Shown here: positions 6,559 to 63,232 of the stretch, one piece after another | How the letters are laid out: each line of letters begins with the position of its first letter | How positions within the stretch are numbered: position 1 is the first letter of the stretch | Virus record (IMG/VR): IMGVR_UViG_3300046093_000295 | Strand: one strand, 5' to 3' | DNA: 64,000 nt | Source: a virus | Position numbers and translations under genes: made by a program | Notes under the pieces: generated by a model | Databases searched by the model: none | What the model was told of the DNA's origin: nothing | Seen by the model: the letters and a program-made list of their open reading frames with translations, nothing else

Positions 6559-7665
6559 ATGGATGTTTATAAAGTCGGAGGCGCCGTTCGCGATCAACTC
6601 ATGGGGCGCGAGCCGAAGGATGTTGATTGGGTCGTAGTCGGGTCTTCGACTGAAGAAATGATTCGACTCGGCTTTAAGCAAGTTGGGGCATCATTTCCAG
6701 TGTTCCTCCATCCCGAAACAGGGGATGAATGGGCTTTGGCTAGAACTGAGCAAAAGGCTGGTGTTGGTCATACAGGATTTTCTGTAGAGACTGAAAACGT
6801 CACAATCGAATCAGACCTTAAGCGTCGGGATTTTACAACCAACTCGATAGCTTTCAACCCCGTAAACGGGGAATACATTGATCCATATGGCGGCGTGAAA
6901 GACATCAAAGCAAAAATTCTTCGCCATACATCTTTAGCATTTTCTGAAGATCCTTTGCGCGTTGTTCGACTTGCTAGATTTTATGCTCGCTATTCTGAAT
7001 TTTCTGTTGCTGATGAAACCATGGAATTGTCAAAGCAGATTGTTAAATCTGGTGAAATGGATACCATTTCAAAAGAGCGATTTGTAAAAGAGTTTGAGAA
7101 AGTCATCCTTGACGATGGTTCAGACTTTGGCCGATTCGTTGATCTTCTTTACAAACTTGGCGTATTTCAGAACGTGCGTTTTTTCAAAGATGTTTTTGGG
7201 GATATAAGTAGTTCACATCTTCTTGAAATGAAAAAACATTTTGAAGCTGCACGTAAGTGTAACTTGGAAACGAGTGAGATTTTAGTTGCGACTTTTTCTT
7301 CAGTTATGGCGCCAAATGCAGCAAAGGTTTTTGGAAATGATGTTAACGGTGCTTTAAATGCTTTGCAAATTTTTACTTCTGCTGACTATTCAGCAGAAGG
7401 TGTTGTTTATGCTCTAGTAAAGACTCGTTCTACGAATGCTATTAGCACGCACGCAAACTGTGCCCTAAATGTTTTGGCGGCACTTTGGCCGATACAACAA
7501 AATAACTTGCTTTTTTCAGCACATGATTGGAGAAAATTCGCTTCAATCACGTCAAATCTTGATATAATCAACCTCGTAGCAAATTTTGCTGGTAAAGAAC
7601 TTGGACGCCAAATTAGTTTGGCAATGATTACTGCCATTCGACAGGAGATGAATAATGAAAGCTGA
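6559..7665 (+). CDS. cca: tRNA nucleotidyltransferase (CCA-adding enzyme)
   Basis: VGGAVRD..D.D, DL.RRDFT.N, F.EDPLRV.R.ARF. Confidence 0.92.
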   Translation: MDVYKVGGAVRDQLMGREPKDVDWVVVGSSTEEMIRLGFKQVGASFPVFLHPETGDEWALARTEQKAGVGHTGFSVETENVTIESDLKRRDFTTNSIAFNPVNGEYIDPYGGVKDIKAKILRHTSLAFSEDPLRVVRLARFYARYSEFSVADETMELSKQIVKSGEMDTISKERFVKEFEKVILDDGSDFGRFVDLLYKLGVFQNVRFFKDVFGDISSSHLLEMKKHFEAARKCNLETSEILVATFSSVMAPNAAKVFGNDVNGALNALQIFTSADYSAEGVVYALVKTRSTNAISTHANCALNVLAALWPIQQNNLLFSAHDWRKFASITSNLDIINLVANFAGKELGRQISLAMITAIRQEMNNES

Positions 7666-8680
7666 AAAAGAAACGACACTGTTTACGGTACCTAGTGGCT
7701 CTCGTCTTTATGGAACTTTCGGACCAGAATCTGACTATGACTATAAGGCCGTAGTTCTTCCAAAGCTTGATGATCTGCTGCTTAATAAGAAGGTAACTAA
7801 TCGCAAGGAAAAGCCCGAAGGGCGTTCACAGAGCGATAAAGTGCAGGCTGGGGAATCAGAAACCGAATACTTGCCGCTTCAGGTATTTTTTGATGATTTC
7901 TTTAACGGGCAAACTTACGCATTGGAAGTTGCATTTGCCGTTCTTAATGGCGAATCAGAACGTGTTAAGCCTTCAGAAGTTCAAATGATGAGGGAGATGG
8001 TTGATCATTATATGACCAATTCTGTGAAGAAGATGGTCGGTTATGCTATCTCGCAGTCGAAAGCTTACGGCCTTAAAAATGATCGATACACTTCATTGAA
8101 GAAGGTTGTCGATACGATCAAAGATTACTTTGGTTCAGAGACTGAAGTAATGCGTAAAGCCCGGCTTGATTCTCCTGAGTCCTCTGAGCTGATTGACAAA
8201 ATCCTCAAGTTTCCAAACGTCACACGTATAGAAATTCTCAATGCTAAAGGAGGAATTGAAACCGCTCCTGGCATTCAAGTTATTTCTCCAAAGTTTTTGA
8301 TGTCTAATACTTGGTGGCAAGTTTACAGTTCACTGTTGAATACGCTAGATTCATACGGGGAACGCGTTAAAAGCTTTGAGGGCCAGCATGCAGATTGGAA
8401 AGCGTTGAGCCATGCAATTCGCATTGTTGAACAGATTGTTGAGATTTCAAGAACCGGAGCGCTAATATTCCCACGACCTAATTCTGATTATCTGCGCTCT
8501 GTAAAAGAGGGAAAAGAAACAATTGAAGGGGCTTTGGCCTATCTTGATGCCCGTTTCGAAGAAGTAGATGAAGCTGTTGCTAAATCAGTTTTGAAGGAAA
8601 AGACTCAAGAATTGACTGACCAATTTAATATGTTTAAGTTGTCACACCTAAAGCGTCTTTACAATCTCACCGCTTTTTAA
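7655..8680 (+). CDS. Pol-beta superfamily nucleotidyltransferase
   Basis: SGSRLYG...SDYDY motif; WKALSHAIR. Confidence 0.75.
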   Translation: MKAEKETTLFTVPSGSRLYGTFGPESDYDYKAVVLPKLDDLLLNKKVTNRKEKPEGRSQSDKVQAGESETEYLPLQVFFDDFFNGQTYALEVAFAVLNGESERVKPSEVQMMREMVDHYMTNSVKKMVGYAISQSKAYGLKNDRYTSLKKVVDTIKDYFGSETEVMRKARLDSPESSELIDKILKFPNVTRIEILNAKGGIETAPGIQVISPKFLMSNTWWQVYSSLLNTLDSYGERVKSFEGQHADWKALSHAIRIVEQIVEISRTGALIFPRPNSDYLRSVKEGKETIEGALAYLDARFEEVDEAVAKSVLKEKTQELTDQFNMFKLSHLKRLYNLTAF

Positions 8681-18347: not shown

Positions 18348-18944
18348 ATGATTAAACTTAAAAAATTTGCTGCAGATCTTGGTGTAACCAGGATGACGCT
18401 GTGGAATTGGAAGAAGGCTGGAAAAATACAATTTCATAAAATTGGTTCAATGAATTATGTTGATATTGAAACTTACAACAAATTCCTTGGTATAAAGGCC
18501 AAGGAAGAAGAACGCGTAGTGATTTATTGTCGTGTTTCTTCGACTGCAAATAAATCTAATCTTGAGACTCAATCCGAAAGGTTGATTTCATATTGTAACG
18601 CTAGAGGTTACAAAGTTGCTAAAGTCGTTACAGAATTTGGATCTGGACTAAATGATAAGAGGCCAAAACTGGAAAAGCTTCTTAAGGAACAGGATTTTAC
18701 TAAATTAGTAGTTGAACATAAGGATCGGCTGACTAGATTCGGTTTCAATTATATTGAACAGCTATTAAATTCTAATGGCATTGAAATCGATGTAGTGAAT
18801 AATGTAGAGTCAGATAAAGAAGACATTGTTCAGGATTTTGTGTCCGTCATTACATCTTTTTGCGCAAGAATTTATGGACAGCGCCGCAGCAAACGGAATA
18901 CGGAAAAATTGGTTCAAGAATTAGCTAACGATTCAGAAAAATGA
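18348..18944 (+). CDS. tnpA: IS607 serine recombinase/transposase
   Basis: N-terminal HTH, IYCRVSS catalytic motif, GSGLN.KR, VEHKDRLTRFGF. Confidence 0.95.
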   Translation: MIKLKKFAADLGVTRMTLWNWKKAGKIQFHKIGSMNYVDIETYNKFLGIKAKEEERVVIYCRVSSTANKSNLETQSERLISYCNARGYKVAKVVTEFGSGLNDKRPKLEKLLKEQDFTKLVVEHKDRLTRFGFNYIEQLLNSNGIEIDVVNNVESDKEDIVQDFVSVITSFCARIYGQRRSKRNTEKLVQELANDSEK

Positions 18945-20176
18945 CAAATACAGTTCTTAAGGCTTTTAAGTACCGAATATATCCTAATAATAAGCAAGAG
19001 AAATTTCTTCTCCAAAATTTTGGATGTGTTCGCTTCATTTGGAATCAGTTAGTTGCCAATTTTAATTCTTTTTCAAAAGAAGGCCCAAACCGACCAATGA
19101 ATGAGAAGATTTTGAAAGATGATGAGAACTTTCCATGGCTTAAAGATGCTATTAGTTATGCCTTGCAGCAAAAACGAATCGATTTTGATGAAACCAAAAA
19201 GCAATTTTTCTCTAAAAACCGTAAAGCTAAACTGGGAAGACCAAAATTTAAAAAGCGGGGTGGCAATGAATCATTTAGGATTCCTGCGGCTTCAATGCAT
19301 TTAGAAAAATTTGAACAAATTAAAGCAGGTTTTATTAAATTTCCAAAAATGTCTCCAGTAAAAGTAATCATAGATAGACCTTTTACTGGTAAACCAAAAT
19401 CTGTCACAATTTCTAAAAATCCAAGTGGGCAATATTTTGTTTCAATTTTAGTTGAAGAAGAAATAGAATTGAAACAAAATACTGGTCGCTCAATCGGTAT
19501 TGATCTCGGATTGAAAAACTTGCTCATCTTAAGTGATGGTACGCAAATTTCCAATCCAAGATGGTTCAGAGAAAACCAATCTAAACTAAAACGGTCACAG
19601 CAGCATTTAAGCAGAAAAACAAAGGGTTCTAAAAGGTACAATAAACAGAAAATCAAAGTTGCGAAAATCCATAGGGATATTGTAAATCAGCGCAAGTTCA
19701 TTTACCATAACCTGTCGAGTTGGTTAATAGAAAATTACGATGTTATTTGTACTGAAACTCTAAAAGTTAAAAACATGGTTAAGAATCATAGTTTGGCAAA
19801 ATCCATACTTGATGCAAGTTGGTCCACTTTTATTTCAATGCTGGAATACAAAAGTAGGTGGTATGGCCGCACATTTCATAAGATAGATACTTGGTTCCCA
19901 TCGAGTAAGACGTGTTCTTGCTGCGGCCATAAAATGGAAACGATGGATTTATCCATAAGAGAATGGACATGCCCAATATGCGGCTCAAGCCATGATCGCG
20001 ACTTAAATGCGGCTATCAATATTTTAAATGAAGGTGTAAAGGACCTTTATGACATGACCTCGGCTGAATTAACCGAGTACAGACGTGGAGGGGCAGTAAG
20101 ACCTAAGGAAGTTCTTCCAAAGGCAGCTTCTGTGAAGCGTTTAGTGAGTTTTATAGATTTTTATAGAACCGCGTAA
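18941..20176 (+). CDS. tnpB: TnpB RNA-guided endonuclease
   Basis: KYRIYP HTH, RuvC GIDLG / E / DRD.NAA all intact, CxxC...CxxC zinc ribbon. Confidence 0.95.
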   Translation: MTNTVLKAFKYRIYPNNKQEKFLLQNFGCVRFIWNQLVANFNSFSKEGPNRPMNEKILKDDENFPWLKDAISYALQQKRIDFDETKKQFFSKNRKAKLGRPKFKKRGGNESFRIPAASMHLEKFEQIKAGFIKFPKMSPVKVIIDRPFTGKPKSVTISKNPSGQYFVSILVEEEIELKQNTGRSIGIDLGLKNLLILSDGTQISNPRWFRENQSKLKRSQQHLSRKTKGSKRYNKQKIKVAKIHRDIVNQRKFIYHNLSSWLIENYDVICTETLKVKNMVKNHSLAKSILDASWSTFISMLEYKSRWYGRTFHKIDTWFPSSKTCSCCGHKMETMDLSIREWTCPICGSSHDRDLNAAINILNEGVKDLYDMTSAELTEYRRGGAVRPKEVLPKAASVKRLVSFIDFYRTA

Positions 20177-21614: not shown

Positions 21615-22077
21615 TGAATTTGCTTGAAATTCTAAACACTAAACCAATAGTCAAATGGGAAAATGTTGGGCATAGGCACATCGGGGAATTTATCATTGAT
21701 GGCAAACTTTGTCATGTACAAATTGATGAATACGATGTAGAATCAAAACATCTTATAGATTTTGGGTTTGCTGTAAATGGCACCAATAAGGCTACAGGTG
21801 GAGAAATTCCTGCTGCCAAACTAATTGGGGCAGTGTTAAATGCTGCTGTCCCAAAACTTCAGGAACTAGGGCCGGATTTCATTTTAATCGCCGTTGATAA
21901 AACTTCGGGATTAGTTGAAAGTCGAAAAAATTATACGATGCGCTTTACAAGTGGGTGAATAGAAACGTAAATTTTGCATTTGCTTCCCCGGAATGGATAG
22001 AAAATTCAAAAGCTTTTTACAAGATTCTTGGCAGAAAAACTCCTTCTGAAGAAGAAATCGAACTGTTTATTCTTTAG
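21611..22077 (+). pseudogene. frameshifted gene, paralogue of 23069-23590
   Basis: -1 shift in the A6 run at 21925-21930 restores LYDALYKW, matching the paralogue's KLYEMLAR, and extends to TAG 22075-22077. Confidence 0.6.
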
Positions 22078-22140
22078 TAAAACAAAAATAAATTTGTAAA
22101 GATAGAAAAGTATGGTATAATTGGAGAATGCAAAAAGTGT

Positions 22141-22254
22141 GGGCCGTTAGCTCAGTTGGTTAGAGCAGAGGACTCAGGCATTCTGTTGGATAATAACAAA
22201 AGAAGCCGAAGAATAATCCTTTGGTCGTTGGTTCGAGTCCAACACGGCCTACCA
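22141..22254 (+). tRNA. tRNA-Ile2/Met(CAT) with 37-nt insertion in the anticodon
   Basis: Canonical acceptor, D and T arms and CCA; loop CTCA[22177-22213]TAA. Confidence 0.8.
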
Positions 22255-22362
22255 TTTATGTTTTGGAAATTTGTATATGATTAGAAAGACCTCTTTGTCC
22301 GGCCATAACTCAGATGGATAGAGTAATTTTGAGTATTTAACCTTTTACCTGATTGTACTTTG

Positions 22363-22439
22363 CTCGCCAGTACCGGAGCGCTCTTCTAAAGCGTAGTACC
22401 GTAACGGAGTCAATGGTGGTTCGAATCCACTCTGGCGAG
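22363..22439 (+). tRNA. D-armless tRNA-Arg(TCT)-like domain nested in the intron region
   Basis: TCGCCAG/CTGGCGA acceptor within a 16-bp stem, GCGCT-CTTCTAA-AGCGT arm, GGTGG-TTCGAAT-CCACT T arm, only TACCGGA where the D arm should be. Confidence 0.6.
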
Positions 22440-22532
22440 CAAAGTACATTTTAATTTATTATTCTAGATAGAATAATTTGAGTTACAATAATTCTACGAC
22501 AATGAATAAGAAGCAAATATGTTAAACAGTTC

Positions 22533-22760
22533 TAATGGGGCACATAAATAGGGATGTTTATTGTGAATGTAGTCAAATTCGGCGAACGCTGCATAAATAC
22601 ATTTAATCCAGAGGACAGTATTTTTATGCCAACGCCGAGCGAAGCCTTGAAAAAGGAACGTGTAGAGACTTGACGGCTACCATCTAGAACAGATGAAGAC
22701 AAAGCTCAGACCACGCGCGGGAAGATAAAAATTCTCAGTAGCGAAAGCTATAGTGGTAAG
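22533..22760 (+). ncRNA. group I intron catalytic core (IC3-like)
   Basis: P2, P3 GTAGTC/GGCTAC, P4 TTCGGCG/CGCCGAG, P5, P6 CG/CG plus CCTT/AAGG, P7 GAGACTT, P8 CATCT/AGATG, P9 TAGC-GAAA-GCTA, P9.0 ACCAC/GTGGT, putative terminal G22760. Confidence 0.88.
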
Positions 22761-22817
22761 CTAAGCAATAAGTCGCTGGTTCGAATCCAGCTGGCCGGAC
22801 AAAGGGGTTTTAAAATT

Positions 22818-24192: not shown

Positions 24193-24282
24193 TTGTCGCA
24201 ATGATTGAACGTTTTAAGCTACTTGGGGTTCTAAATAAGAAATTTTACAGACTGTTAGCTCAATTGGGAGAGCGGTTGCTTT
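24108..24282 (+). repeat. direct duplication copy 1 (gene 3' end plus tRNA 5' half); copy 2 at 25122-25281
   Basis: Near-identical sequence read by eye, with small indels. Confidence 0.9.
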
Positions 24283-24345
24283 AGGATCAGGTAGTTGGTA
24301 GTTGGTAGTTGGTAGTTGGTAGTTGGTAGTGGGTTCAACACCTGC
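24248..24345 (+). pseudogene. pseudo-tRNA with heptamer expansion
   Basis: 5' half of the 25248 tRNA, then (GGTAGTT)n, then a T-arm-like hairpin; no matching 3' acceptor. Confidence 0.65.
24290..24330 (+). repeat. tandem repeat (GGTAGTT) x ~6
   Basis: Five exact units plus GGTAGT. Confidence 0.95.
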
Positions 24346-24437
24346 AAAACCCGCCTCAGTAATCAAAGAACTTGCCTTAGCTCTTGAGTTGTTTTCCATG
24401 CAGAATCAAGTAAATACGGTGATCTATAGGGGAATTT

Positions 24438-25247: not shown

Positions 25248-25323
25248 GGACCGTTAGCTCAATTGGGAGAGCGGTTGCTTTGCTAAAGCATACAGGTTGC
25301 TGGTTCGATCCCGGCACGGTCCA
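25248..25323 (+). tRNA. tRNA-Ala(TGC)-derived tRNA with expanded anticodon loop (can register as GCT)
   Basis: GGACCGT/ACGGTCC acceptor with A3-U70; loop TTTGCTAAA; short variable loop; no encoded CCA. Confidence 0.65.
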
Positions 25324-29697: not shown

Positions 29698-30576
29698 ATG
29701 CGCAAAATTAAAAATCTTCCTGCAAACGTGCAGGGTAGAGACTTCGTCTGCGGTGATATCCATGGTTCTTATAGCTGTGTAAACGCATTTATGAATGGCG
29801 TTAATTTTGACAAAGCGGTTGATCGGCTAATCTCAGTTGGCGACTTGATAGACCGTGGACCAGAAAATGAAAAGTGTTTATCCCTTCTAAATGAGCCTTG
29901 GTTCCATAGTGTCAAAGGTAACCATGAAGAACTAATGGAAGGCTATTTCTCTAATGAAATACCGGGAATATTTTTCTGGCAGAGGAACGGCGGGTCATGG
30001 GGAGTTGAATATAAGGGCGGCATAGACGAAGTTTCCGATTCAATTGGGCGCATTGTCTATGAAAAAATCATGAACCTTCCGAATATTATTACCGTCGAAC
30101 TACCAAATGGTGGACGTTATCATGTGATCCATGCAGAGTTATATAGCAGTGAAAAAATAACTGACGCAGATTTAAGTGACCCAGAAATATTCAAAGCTGT
30201 TTCTGAATATGAAACAGATGATGGCCGCTGCATTTCTTGGGGCAGATTCATGTTTCAACGCATGTATAAGAAGACACTAGATGATGCCGAAATTAAAAAA
30301 ATCCGACAATGGTCTGAACTAGAGAGGCCACATAAACATTTTGGTCAAGAACTAAGCATGATTTATTCAGGACACACGATAATTAAACGCCCAATACAGT
30401 TTTATTGTCAAACAAATCTTGATACAATGGCATACGGCAGCTATGATATGGATGCCGAAGGTTGGGAAGGACTAACCGTTGCTGAACCAATATCAAACCG
30501 TTTTTGGTTCGCAAATGATAAAGTTTTTAAAGAAACAACTCCAGTAATTTTTAAGAAGGAAGAAAATGTCACGTAA
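29698..30576 (+). CDS. Ser/Thr protein phosphatase-family metallophosphoesterase
   Basis: GDIHG, GDLIDRG, GNHE, HAE, GHT. Confidence 0.9.
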   Translation: MRKIKNLPANVQGRDFVCGDIHGSYSCVNAFMNGVNFDKAVDRLISVGDLIDRGPENEKCLSLLNEPWFHSVKGNHEELMEGYFSNEIPGIFFWQRNGGSWGVEYKGGIDEVSDSIGRIVYEKIMNLPNIITVELPNGGRYHVIHAELYSSEKITDADLSDPEIFKAVSEYETDDGRCISWGRFMFQRMYKKTLDDAEIKKIRQWSELERPHKHFGQELSMIYSGHTIIKRPIQFYCQTNLDTMAYGSYDMDAEGWEGLTVAEPISNRFWFANDKVFKETTPVIFKKEENVT

Positions 30577-62176: not shown

Positions 62177-63232
62177 ATGACAAACCCTATGATTAAATTC
62201 CCAAGCATCGGCCAATTTCGCGATGCTATCAAGCAGATTCAATCTAGCGCCAAGTACCACGGGAAGCCAGTACCGAAACTGAAAATGGTCGGTTTTATCA
62301 AGGCACACGGGTCCAATGGTGGAATTGTCCGCAAAGTCGGCGGAACTGCCGAAGACATTTACTTCCAGTCTCGCGAACGCATTCTGTCGCTGGAATCAGA
62401 TAATGCAGGTTTCTGGTTCTGGGGGAATTCCATTCGTGCTGAACTGAATGACATGTTCAATCGAATCGAAAAGGCATGTCCGGGCAAAACTGGTTATATT
62501 CAAGTATTCGGCGAATGGGCGGGTGGTAGTATCCAATCCGGCGTCGGTTTGACTGGCCTCGACAAATTCTTCATGGTATTCGGTATTCGCGTTTCTGAAG
62601 ATGCTGAGTGCACCGACTGGGAACCAAAAGTAGTCTATGATGAAGTCTTTAAGTTCGAAGTTCATCCTTCTGTCTTTGACAAGTATTTCTTTAAGACATG
62701 GAAAATCGAAATCGACTTTTCCAATCCGGCACTGATGCAAAATGAGTTGGTTCGTATTACTCAAGAAGTTGAAGCTGATTGCCCTGTTGCTCGCTACTTC
62801 AAGCCCGATGCAGAAATTGGTTCCCTTATCGGCGAAGGCGTAGTATGGGTTGTCGAAGAAGGTCAGGACTGTGGCTTTGATGTTTTGTCGGTGATGATGA
62901 AGATAAAGGGAGAAAAACATAGTGTTTCTAAAGTCAAGACTGTTGCTGAAGTAGATGTCGAAAAAGTTAAGAGTATTGCTGACTTCATTGAGTATGCAGC
63001 AACTGAAAATCGACTTGAGCAGATGTTCCAAAAGGCTGTAGAATTGCAACTTGAGATTAGTGCGAAGTCCACTGGTGCATATATCAAGCTTGTGGTAGGT
63101 GATATTTTGAAGGAAGAATTAGATGTGATGGCGGCCTCGCAAATTGAACCCAAGGATATCGGTGGTCCTCTTGCGACAAAGGCGCGAGAGTTCTGGTTTA
63201 AGAAAGTAGAAGAATCTGTCAATCTGGGGTAA
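62177..63232 (+). CDS. RNA ligase (Rnl2-like nucleotidyltransferase)
   Basis: KAHGSN (KxHGxN), FGEW, GEGVVW, KIKGEKH motifs. Confidence 0.8.
   Translation: MTNPMIKFPSIGQFRDAIKQIQSSAKYHGKPVPKLKMVGFIKAHGSNGGIVRKVGGTAEDIYFQSRERILSLESDNAGFWFWGNSIRAELNDMFNRIEKACPGKTGYIQVFGEWAGGSIQSGVGLTGLDKFFMVFGIRVSEDAECTDWEPKVVYDEVFKFEVHPSVFDKYFFKTWKIEIDFSNPALMQNELVRITQEVEADCPVARYFKPDAEIGSLIGEGVVWVVEEGQDCGFDVLSVMMKIKGEKHSVSKVKTVAEVDVEKVKSIADFIEYAATENRLEQMFQKAVELQLEISAKSTGAYIKLVVGDILKEELDVMAASQIEPKDIGGPLATKAREFWFKKVEESVNLG

Follow-up and report, generated by a model that had tools for sequence, protein, structure and literature searches.

A phage tRNA-Ile2(CAU)-type gene interrupted inside its anticodon by a 37-nt hairpin insert, a candidate protein-dependent mini-intron

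The DNA of an uncultured freshwater phage (IMG/VR virus record IMGVR_UViG_3300046093_000295), assembled to at least 125.8 kb and analysed here over a stretch of 64,000 nucleotides referred to as the window, was found to carry at positions 22141-22254 on the plus strand a complete transfer RNA (tRNA) gene with an encoded CCA end. The gene spans 114 nt, of which 37 nt form an insert that splits the anticodon. With moderate confidence, it is interpreted as a working tRNA-Ile2(CAU) gene in which the insert is a functional, protein-dependent mini-intron that does not splice itself. An interrupted form of the same tRNA is present in L439, a sequence from another Joint Genome Institute (JGI) sample, and alleles without the insert were found in other phages. 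The parts of the gene are the following.

22141..22176 (+): exon 1, tRNA positions 1-35, comprising the 5' strand of the acceptor stem, the D arm, the 5' strand of the anticodon stem and C32 U33 C34 A35 (Rfam alignment)
22177..22213 (+): 37-nt insert, the putative mini-intron, with 22176-22212 as an equally valid register (empty-site alleles)
22177..22207 (+): hairpin of 10 bp (3+4+3) with a bulged A4, a G9-A24 mismatch and an 8-nt loop (fold; pairs kept in L439)
22208..22213 (+): purine-rich 3' tail of the insert, GAAGAA (AAAGTA in L439; fold and L439 alignment)
22214..22254 (+): exon 2, comprising U36 A37 A38, the 3' strand of the anticodon stem, the variable loop, the T arm, the 3' strand of the acceptor stem, A73 and CCA (Rfam alignment)

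The match of 22141-22251 to the Rfam tRNA model RF00005 (57.6 bits, E 1e-10, model positions 1-71) passes the gathering threshold of 29 bits and includes a 40-nt local insertion in the anticodon loop. The acceptor stem GGGCCGT/ACGGCCT (G1-U72 to U7-A66), a standard D arm, the anticodon stem GAGGA/TCCTT, the variable loop TGGTC, the T arm GTTGG-TTCGAGT-CCAAC and A73 are all in place, and the two strands of the anticodon stem are 44 nt apart where 7 nt are expected. Removal of the insert gives a 7-nt anticodon loop, CTCATAA, with CAU as anticodon. A preliminary description of the locus, drawn from its sequence alone, had recognised a canonical tRNA with CCA split by a 37-nt insert in the anticodon, and this is borne out by the Rfam score and by the empty alleles, which fix the length of the insert. 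ARAGORN did not call the gene in default mode; with the -i option it reported a 114-nt gene with a 37-nt intron, forced towards the canonical site, under the label tRNA-Leu(CAG), a label rejected in view of the class I body of this tRNA and of the CAU anticodon in the empty alleles.

Both halves of the tRNA have their best matches in E. coli genes annotated as tRNA-Ile with a CAU loop, and it contains the pairs C4-G69, C5-G68 and G27-U43, which we take to be determinants for TilS. The second CAU tRNA of the window (17525) has a body unlike that of the interrupted one. In its intron-less form the tRNA is identical at 76 of 77 positions, with A57 as the only difference, to chromosomal tRNAs in seven (G236, G387, G191, G160, G061, G324 and G245) of 401 genomes from the bacterial order around a metagenome-assembled genome labelled 'Betaproteobacteria bacterium'; the unpublished genome G297 carries no weight in any of the statements made. 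These similarities uphold the earlier tRNA-Ile2 assignment and support, at the level of sequence, a gene of the tRNA-Ile2(CAU) type, a predicted reader of the rare codon AUA, that was recently captured from a host-type source. In the phage, whose G+C content is about 40%, AUA makes up 9.7 of every 1000 codons and 14% of those for Ile, figures consistent with a need for tRNA-Ile2; AUA use in the host is probably much lower, judging from the usual composition of such bacteria. Uninterrupted homologues of the tRNA are carried by 1013 cultured-phage records.

An assembly artefact can be excluded: the insert is present unchanged in four independent JGI assemblies (L007, L009, L010 and L012), and it is intact even in L010, which differs near the tRNA by a 47-nt deletion (22052-22098) and 8 substitutions; at least half of the sequence words of the locus are present in 22 DNA runs. 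With these four assemblies and L439 all bearing the insert, the concern raised earlier that it might be unique to one genome or created by assembly is laid to rest.

Alignment with intron-less alleles showed the insert to be a discrete gain. A search of IMG/VR with a pattern for the T arm and acceptor stem returned 13 phage tRNAs, among them that of L229, which has no insert, is identical to the window exons over 36 + 41 nt and over four further bases downstream, and has the loop CTCATAA. L229 derives from a phage of 66 kb (95% complete) whose flanks share nothing with the window, and no match to a 670-aa protein or to the RNA ligase of the window was found in it; this empty allele sets the length of the insert at exactly 37 nt. 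Syntenic relatives were reached through homologues (78-80% identical) of the 185-aa protein encoded downstream of the tRNA array, and in three of them (L434, L435 and L437) the same tRNA occupies the same place without the insert, its T arm differing by a compensatory pair and A57. The anticodon loop of all four empty alleles reads CTCATAA. Exon 1 of the window is identical at 36 of 36 positions to L439 and to the intron-less L229, L434 and L435, and exon 2 at 41 of 41 positions to L439 and L229. On these grounds the insert lies between A35 and U36 (22177-22213), where the preliminary description had placed it, or between C34 and A35 (22176-22212), the two registers being indistinguishable because of a repeated A. 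A further register considered earlier, 22175-22211, yields AAU, which matches no intron-less allele.

Comparison of the window with L439 indicated how the interrupted gene evolves. The exons are identical at 77 of 77 positions and the insert at 31 of 37 (84%), while identity falls to 56% over the 60 nt upstream, 62% over the 45 nt downstream and 70% (nucleotide) in the neighbouring gene. The probability of no change among 77 exon positions is 1.5e-6 at the rate of the insert and 2e-10 at that of the neighbouring gene. Perfect exons around a changed insert and between diverged flanks thus argue that the exons are under purifying selection while interrupted, barring very recent cassette transfer followed by changes confined to the insert, and by the same measure the interrupted gene is in use and not dead.

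The gene is also preceded by a predicted promoter.

22094..22121 (+): sigma-70-type promoter with an extended -10 element, TTGTAA, a 16-nt spacer and TG-n-TATAAT (consensus scan 10/12 plus TG)

This putative promoter sits about 19 nt 5' of the tRNA start, and its block TGGTATAAT is kept in all four relatives (including L439, L434 and L435), while the bases around it diverge. The deletion in L010 takes the end of a small upstream open reading frame (ORF) together with the first four bases of the -35 hexamer and spares the extended -10 element.

This pattern of conservation makes it improbable that the gene was inactivated by insertion of a hairpin at the DNA level, such as a small palindromic element or filler from break repair, and is now a young pseudogene. 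A dead gene would be expected to show about 12-19 exon changes, whereas L439 shows 0 in 77 exon positions against 6 in 37 of the insert, with 30-44% divergence around; the promoter is conserved, a compensatory change maintains the pairing of the hairpin, and a mobile palindrome should have other copies. The lack of another copy or homologue of the insert in the window, in IMG/VR and in INPHARED does speak for such an inactivation, as do the decayed tRNA genes of the same array, exemplified by a heptamer expansion at 24250-24350, and the fact that the splicing machinery was not identified among the approximately 70 window ORFs. Since decay is evident elsewhere in the array, the perfect exons are all the more telling. 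The element at 24250-24350 is a decayed paralogue of the tRNA at 25248, with a broken acceptor stem and a score of 16.8 bits against the Rfam tRNA model, in which about six tandem copies of GTAGTTG replace the anticodon region.

The insert folds as a whole at -10.2 kcal/mol (z -3.2), a value equalled by 2 of 200 shuffles. Relative to it, the insert of L439 has six differences: G2A together with C30T, converting a G-C pair into A-U; C3T, converting C-G into U-G; T18A in the terminal loop; and, in the tail, G32A and A36T. None of the ten hairpin pairs is lost in L439, pair 2-30 being kept by compensatory change and pair 3-29 as a wobble; in a sliding control, 100% of cells were paired as against 36-51% when the partners were slid. 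By these comparisons the hairpin structure was shown to be constrained, in agreement with the fold proposed earlier, and the search for a conserved insert in related phage tRNAs that the preliminary description had suggested led to L439. No third insert-bearing lineage was found among the relatives: L440 begins just downstream of the expected tRNA, L441-L443 are without this tRNA, and those found via the upstream 191-aa protein are without the tRNA context. The IMG/VR searches disclosed neither another interrupted allele of the tRNA nor this phage itself, and INPHARED contained no relative of the locus; searches for further copies of the insert within the window, in IMG/VR (with the insert core) and in INPHARED gave none.

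In the predicted fold of the precursor, the 3' junction lies in a 5-nt bulge adjoining the anticodon stem, and the 5' junction, two base pairs beyond it, in an irregular 2x2 loop from which the hairpin rises. The two Watson-Crick pairs between bulge and loop (C32-G and U33-A) are formed by A34'-G35' of the tail with U33-C32 (insert positions being primed); both of these tail bases are conserved, unlike the variable positions 32' and 36'. This topology recalls splicing of the archaeal type, in which a bulge-helix-bulge (BHB) or bulge-helix-loop would be cut by an enzyme of the EndA family and sealed by a ligase: the 3' junction is in a bulge of the 3' strand by the anticodon stem, and the 5' junction, on the 5' strand, is separated from it by a short helix and adjoins the base of the intron helix. 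Such splicing is nevertheless very improbable here, as the central helix has 2 Watson-Crick pairs and not 4, two bulges of 3 nt are replaced by a 5-nt bulge and a 2x2 loop, the insert interrupts the tRNA at 34/35 or 35/36 instead of 37/38, no tRNA_int_endo domain was found in the approximately 70 window ORFs, and the hosts are bacteria.

Being 37 nt long and without a match to any Rfam family, even at E up to 10, the insert is unable to self-splice. Besides the tRNA itself, the Rfam scan of the locus at E up to 10 gave only chance-level matches to microRNA or plastid families. The preliminary description had also considered a collapsed group I remnant, and a version of this idea was weighed in which group I chemistry still acts, for example in trans by a neighbouring ribozyme, with U33 at the 5' site and the G at 22211 as terminal G. 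A group I core indeed lies 300 nt downstream (22513-22709, 40.8 bits), the same lakes harbour tRNA(CAU) genes that contain group I introns, and U33 and G35' are conserved in L439. The only U...G register, 22175-22211, would however give AAU (UAU in L439) and not the CAU of all empty alleles, its wobble base would fall on a variable position, the tRNA-Arg on the L439 contig has no intron and no ribozyme is seen near it, and neither a P3-P9 core nor an Intron_gpI match was found over the insert at E up to 10. With the junction at 34/35 or 35/36, this chemistry is hardly credible for the insert and the remnant is not retained as its origin.

Other routes were examined and rejected. Excision of a minihelix by RNase P and RNase Z would use the first hairpin base as the 5' junction, and RNase Z would leave 5 extra nt on exon 2; the cuts needed from RNase III would leave a 3' overhang of 6 nt instead of 2 nt. 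The CUGANGA core of a hammerhead is absent from the insert, and no Rfam ribozyme model for small self-cleaving RNAs matched it at E up to 10. The insert has no similarity to the IS607/TnpB element at 18348-20176, which discounts an end of that element as its source, and its matches elsewhere in the window do not exceed 13 nt, too short for a templated copy of local sequence.

Enzymes of RNA repair are encoded in the window; the RNA ligase and a metallophosphoesterase may act on this tRNA, the nucleotidyltransferases being context.

6559-7665 (+): CCA-adding-type nucleotidyltransferase (Pfam PolyA_pol head, E 3e-20)
7655-8680 (+): RlaP RNA-repair nucleotidyltransferase (Pfam RlaP, E 5e-7)
29698..30576 (+): metallophosphoesterase (NinI-like), a possible end-healing enzyme by predicted role (Pfam Metallophos, E 1e-11; phrog_246, E 8e-43)
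62177..63232 (+): ATP-dependent RNA ligase, candidate sealing enzyme, with the motif KAHGSNG (phrog_548 'RNA ligase', E 2.3e-60, full length)

The RNA ligase named in the preliminary description stands on the side of PHROGs (phrog_548, as listed) and not on that of Pfam, which gives no match at E 0.01; its match to T4 Rnl2 in the PDB is weak or marginal, and it may belong to a ligase family poorly covered by Pfam. The window codes in addition for a second metallophosphoesterase, YqeY, a non-specific nuclease, nicotinamide adenine dinucleotide (NAD)-salvage genes and an ART-PolyVal protein.

A functional mini-intron spliced by proteins is the best supported of the origins suggested earlier, given the 77/77 exons of L439, the pairing that is kept and the encoded RNA ligase, the splicing step itself being one that we infer. 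The 114-nt precursor would adopt a cloverleaf fold in which the hairpin extends the anticodon arm. Both junctions would be cut by protein endonucleases, one or two in number and of phage or host origin, after which the anticodon stem would keep the halves in place. The phage RNA ligase (62177-63232) would then close the nick that is left in the loop, after healing of the ends by a phage phosphoesterase if needed, and only after sealing would host TilS make lysidine-34 and the isoleucyl-tRNA synthetase (IleRS) charge the tRNA. Rnl-type ligases require 3'-OH and 5'-phosphate ends. It may be speculated that the interruption protects the precursor from anticodon nucleases, times the supply of the tRNA or protects the gene from a homing nuclease.

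A number of points weigh against this interpretation. Splicing of tRNA by proteins is, to our knowledge, without precedent in bacteria and phages. Among the approximately 70 window ORFs and over the 7 kb that follow the window on the right, Pfam searches disclosed neither an EndA-like protein (tRNA_int_endo) nor another specific RNA endonuclease, and no ORF matched a polynucleotide kinase in Pfam or PHROGs; RtcB was not found in the same ORFs either. The known insert-bearing lineages are two in number and the covariation consists of a single compensatory pair; the shuffle control, weak with two sequences, returned the observed covariation in 66 of 500 shuffles. The identity of the exons could in principle reflect recent cassette transfer or conversion against the host tRNA, and the array that holds the gene also contains clearly decayed tRNA genes. 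Finally, contigs that appear spliced are not diagnostic, as the same lakes hold identical intron-less DNA alleles. The evidence from RNA and DNA runs consists of Logan contigs, and many other organisms contribute contigs that match the tRNA halves. An RNA contig in run X24 reads ...CTCA followed by TAATCCTTTGGTC, and a skip of 38 nt is seen in run X23, both with a spliced appearance; a DNA contig in run X22 skips exactly 37 nt, and L229 is an intron-less allele in DNA.

In the RNA and DNA runs X16, X23 and X24, aligned to 22141-22720, contigs of other organisms from the same lakes join a near-identical 5' half of tRNA(CAU) to a group I core that resembles the one at 22560-22700, which indicates that tRNA-Ile2 genes with introns are common in this habitat.

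As a rival reading, which takes in the anti-nuclease decoy of the preliminary description, the 114-nt RNA might instead act unspliced, as a tRNA look-alike that serves as a decoy or sponge for an anticodon nuclease, TilS or another tRNA-binding defence or host factor, or as a regulator; with the hairpin in place of the anticodon, the RNA would be neither cut nor used in decoding. Conservation of the exons demands a function and not splicing as such, no splicing enzyme was found in the approximately 70 window ORFs, and the phage has invested heavily in tRNA and NAD conflicts (RNA ligase, CCA enzyme, RlaP, ART-PolyVal and NAD salvage). Phage tRNAs are moreover known as counter-measures to tRNA-targeting defence (PMC10264068, PMC11464382). 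All exon positions are nonetheless invariant, including C32 U33 C34 A35, U36 A37 A38, the acceptor end and CCA, as decoding by a tRNA would require and beyond the expected needs of a decoy, and relatives keep an intron-less allele at the same locus, from which it follows that the locus supplies a real tRNA. We know of no anticodon nuclease specific for tRNA-Ile2, a further point against the look-alike, which is considered unlikely, although not to the degree of an inactivated gene.

The proposed mini-intron was compared with known systems. The closest case, and the only published description of such inserts that was found, is that of the 'enigmatic' introns in tRNA genes of the Lak megaphages (Devoto et al. 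2019, Nat Microbiol, PMC6784885). As in the Lak genes, a short insert that Rfam cannot classify interrupts a phage tRNA gene, is present or absent among phage variants, has boundaries that follow from alleles with and without it, and is conserved where present; the 37-nt insert is identical in the four assemblies and 84% identical in L439 with its pairing kept. The Lak phages are gut Prevotella phages of about 540 kb, whereas the phage described here is a freshwater phage of at least 126 kb, and both the sequence and the tRNA differ. One Lak intron is tRNA-shaped, whereas the present insert, placed within the anticodon triplet, consists simply of a 31-nt hairpin and a 6-nt tail; purifying selection on the exons and a compensatory change can be added for it.

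Group I introns of tRNA-Ile2(CAU) occur in the same type of gene and the same broad bacterial group, at a site in the anticodon loop, and likewise vary in presence and absence. In tRNA-Ile(CAU) they sit after U36. They are ribozymes of about 200 nt with a U-G pair and a terminal G, in contrast to 37 nt without a core at 34/35 or 35/36.

Archaeal and eukaryal tRNA introns (BHB, EndA/Sen, RtcB or Trl1; PMC4090602) share with the insert that they are short, structured and non-catalytic, lie in the anticodon arm, and have unpaired junctions on opposite strands at the foot of the intron helix. The phage insert differs in that it has no canonical BHB, is not at 37/38, has no EndA counterpart in the window ORFs and belongs to another domain of life, and the ligase is an ATP-dependent enzyme of the Rnl type and not RtcB. 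In phage T4, damage inflicted by PrrC on the anticodon loop is countered by Pnkp and Rnl1 (PMC3400036, PMC3014915). There, too, a broken anticodon loop is closed by an RNA ligase of the phage while the anticodon stem holds the halves, which is the last step proposed here; the T4 system acts on host-inflicted damage of an uninterrupted tRNA from which nothing is removed, whereas here 37 nt would be excised by two programmed cuts.

Interrupted tRNA genes were also found in other phages. Two narrow IMG/VR patterns, each consisting of one exact D arm, 50-75 nt and one T arm, matched 66 and at least 119 phage contigs (at least 185 in all), most of which have tRNA genes with inserts of 24-50 nt and intact acceptor stems, amounting to more than 100 interrupted genes; the remaining contigs include tandem-tRNA artefacts and tRNA-Tyr introns of giant viruses. 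All ten of the interrupted genes that were checked gave full-length Rfam tRNA matches and lay inside tRNA arrays. Several families of insert sequences recur among the IMG/VR contigs, none of them like the 37-nt insert. In one family, found in tRNAs of large phages (L251, L252, L258, L267, L271, L277, L290, L301, L313, L363, L398 and L433), the insert of about 40-50 nt lies between the D arm and the anticodon region and consists of a short hairpin followed by a conserved (T)ACAGCAA; these genes pass the Rfam tRNA threshold and match no other Rfam family. A second family (L320, L337 and L330, with about 55 more IMG/VR contigs, the majority from sample 3300045988) reads AGACC-AAAGTCCGTCAC... after the D arm, with an intact acceptor stem and single-base variants among contigs.

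Pattern scans beyond IMG/VR gave a different picture. In GTDB the 88 matches were archaeal introns and artefacts, with no convincing bacterial case, and in the metagenome scan archaeal introns and tandem-tRNA artefacts, and not this phage, were seen among the matches listed. The archaeal introns in tRNA(CAU) genes disclosed by these scans were many and of canonical design.

The region around the interrupted gene contains further elements of note. An intact tRNA-Arg(UCU) gene with a 212-nt intron is present in three contigs of relatives of this phage (L434:5617-5903, L435:2521-2807 and L436:65-351), followed by a gene with a T5orf172/MUG113 domain that possibly encodes a homing nuclease. The corresponding tRNA-Arg gene is disrupted in the window (22299-22803) and intron-less in L439, which makes the locus a hotspot of intron gain and loss. 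A tRNA-Arg-like element without a D arm (22364-22439) also occurs free-standing and unannotated, at 87-95% identity, in cultured Pakpunavirus phages; copies were located in Limnohabitans phage DC31 (L239, 44890-44948) and in Pseudomonas phage PAK_P2 (L240, 89788-89849), the latter directly upstream of an HNH endonuclease-like gene. Within the tRNA region of the phage, 18348-20176 is an IS607-type pair (serine resolvase and TnpB/OrfB_IS605), and L007 appears to be without this pair upstream of the genes for 183/187-aa proteins.

In the textbook view, bacteria and their viruses remove tRNA introns only by means of self-splicing ribozymes. The present locus leads us to propose, tentatively, that phages have protein-catalysed tRNA splicing, in which an endonuclease would recognise the hairpin-extended arm and cleave within the anticodon, and a phage ligase of the Rnl type would rejoin the tRNA. 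For annotation, the consequence is that default tRNA finders miss the gene and the intron mode mislabels it as tRNA-Leu(CAG). The locus offers a good test case, since it combines empty and filled alleles, host-like exons, AUA decoding as a read-out and a 114-nt precursor. Splicing of the insert would mean that current knowledge lacks a tRNA-splicing endonuclease of bacteria or phages, and phage RNA ligases would gain a second role beside repair. If the proposal is true, a phage could keep a tRNA such as tRNA-Ile2 as a masked precursor, hidden from anticodon nucleases, TilS and synthetases until its own enzymes free it.

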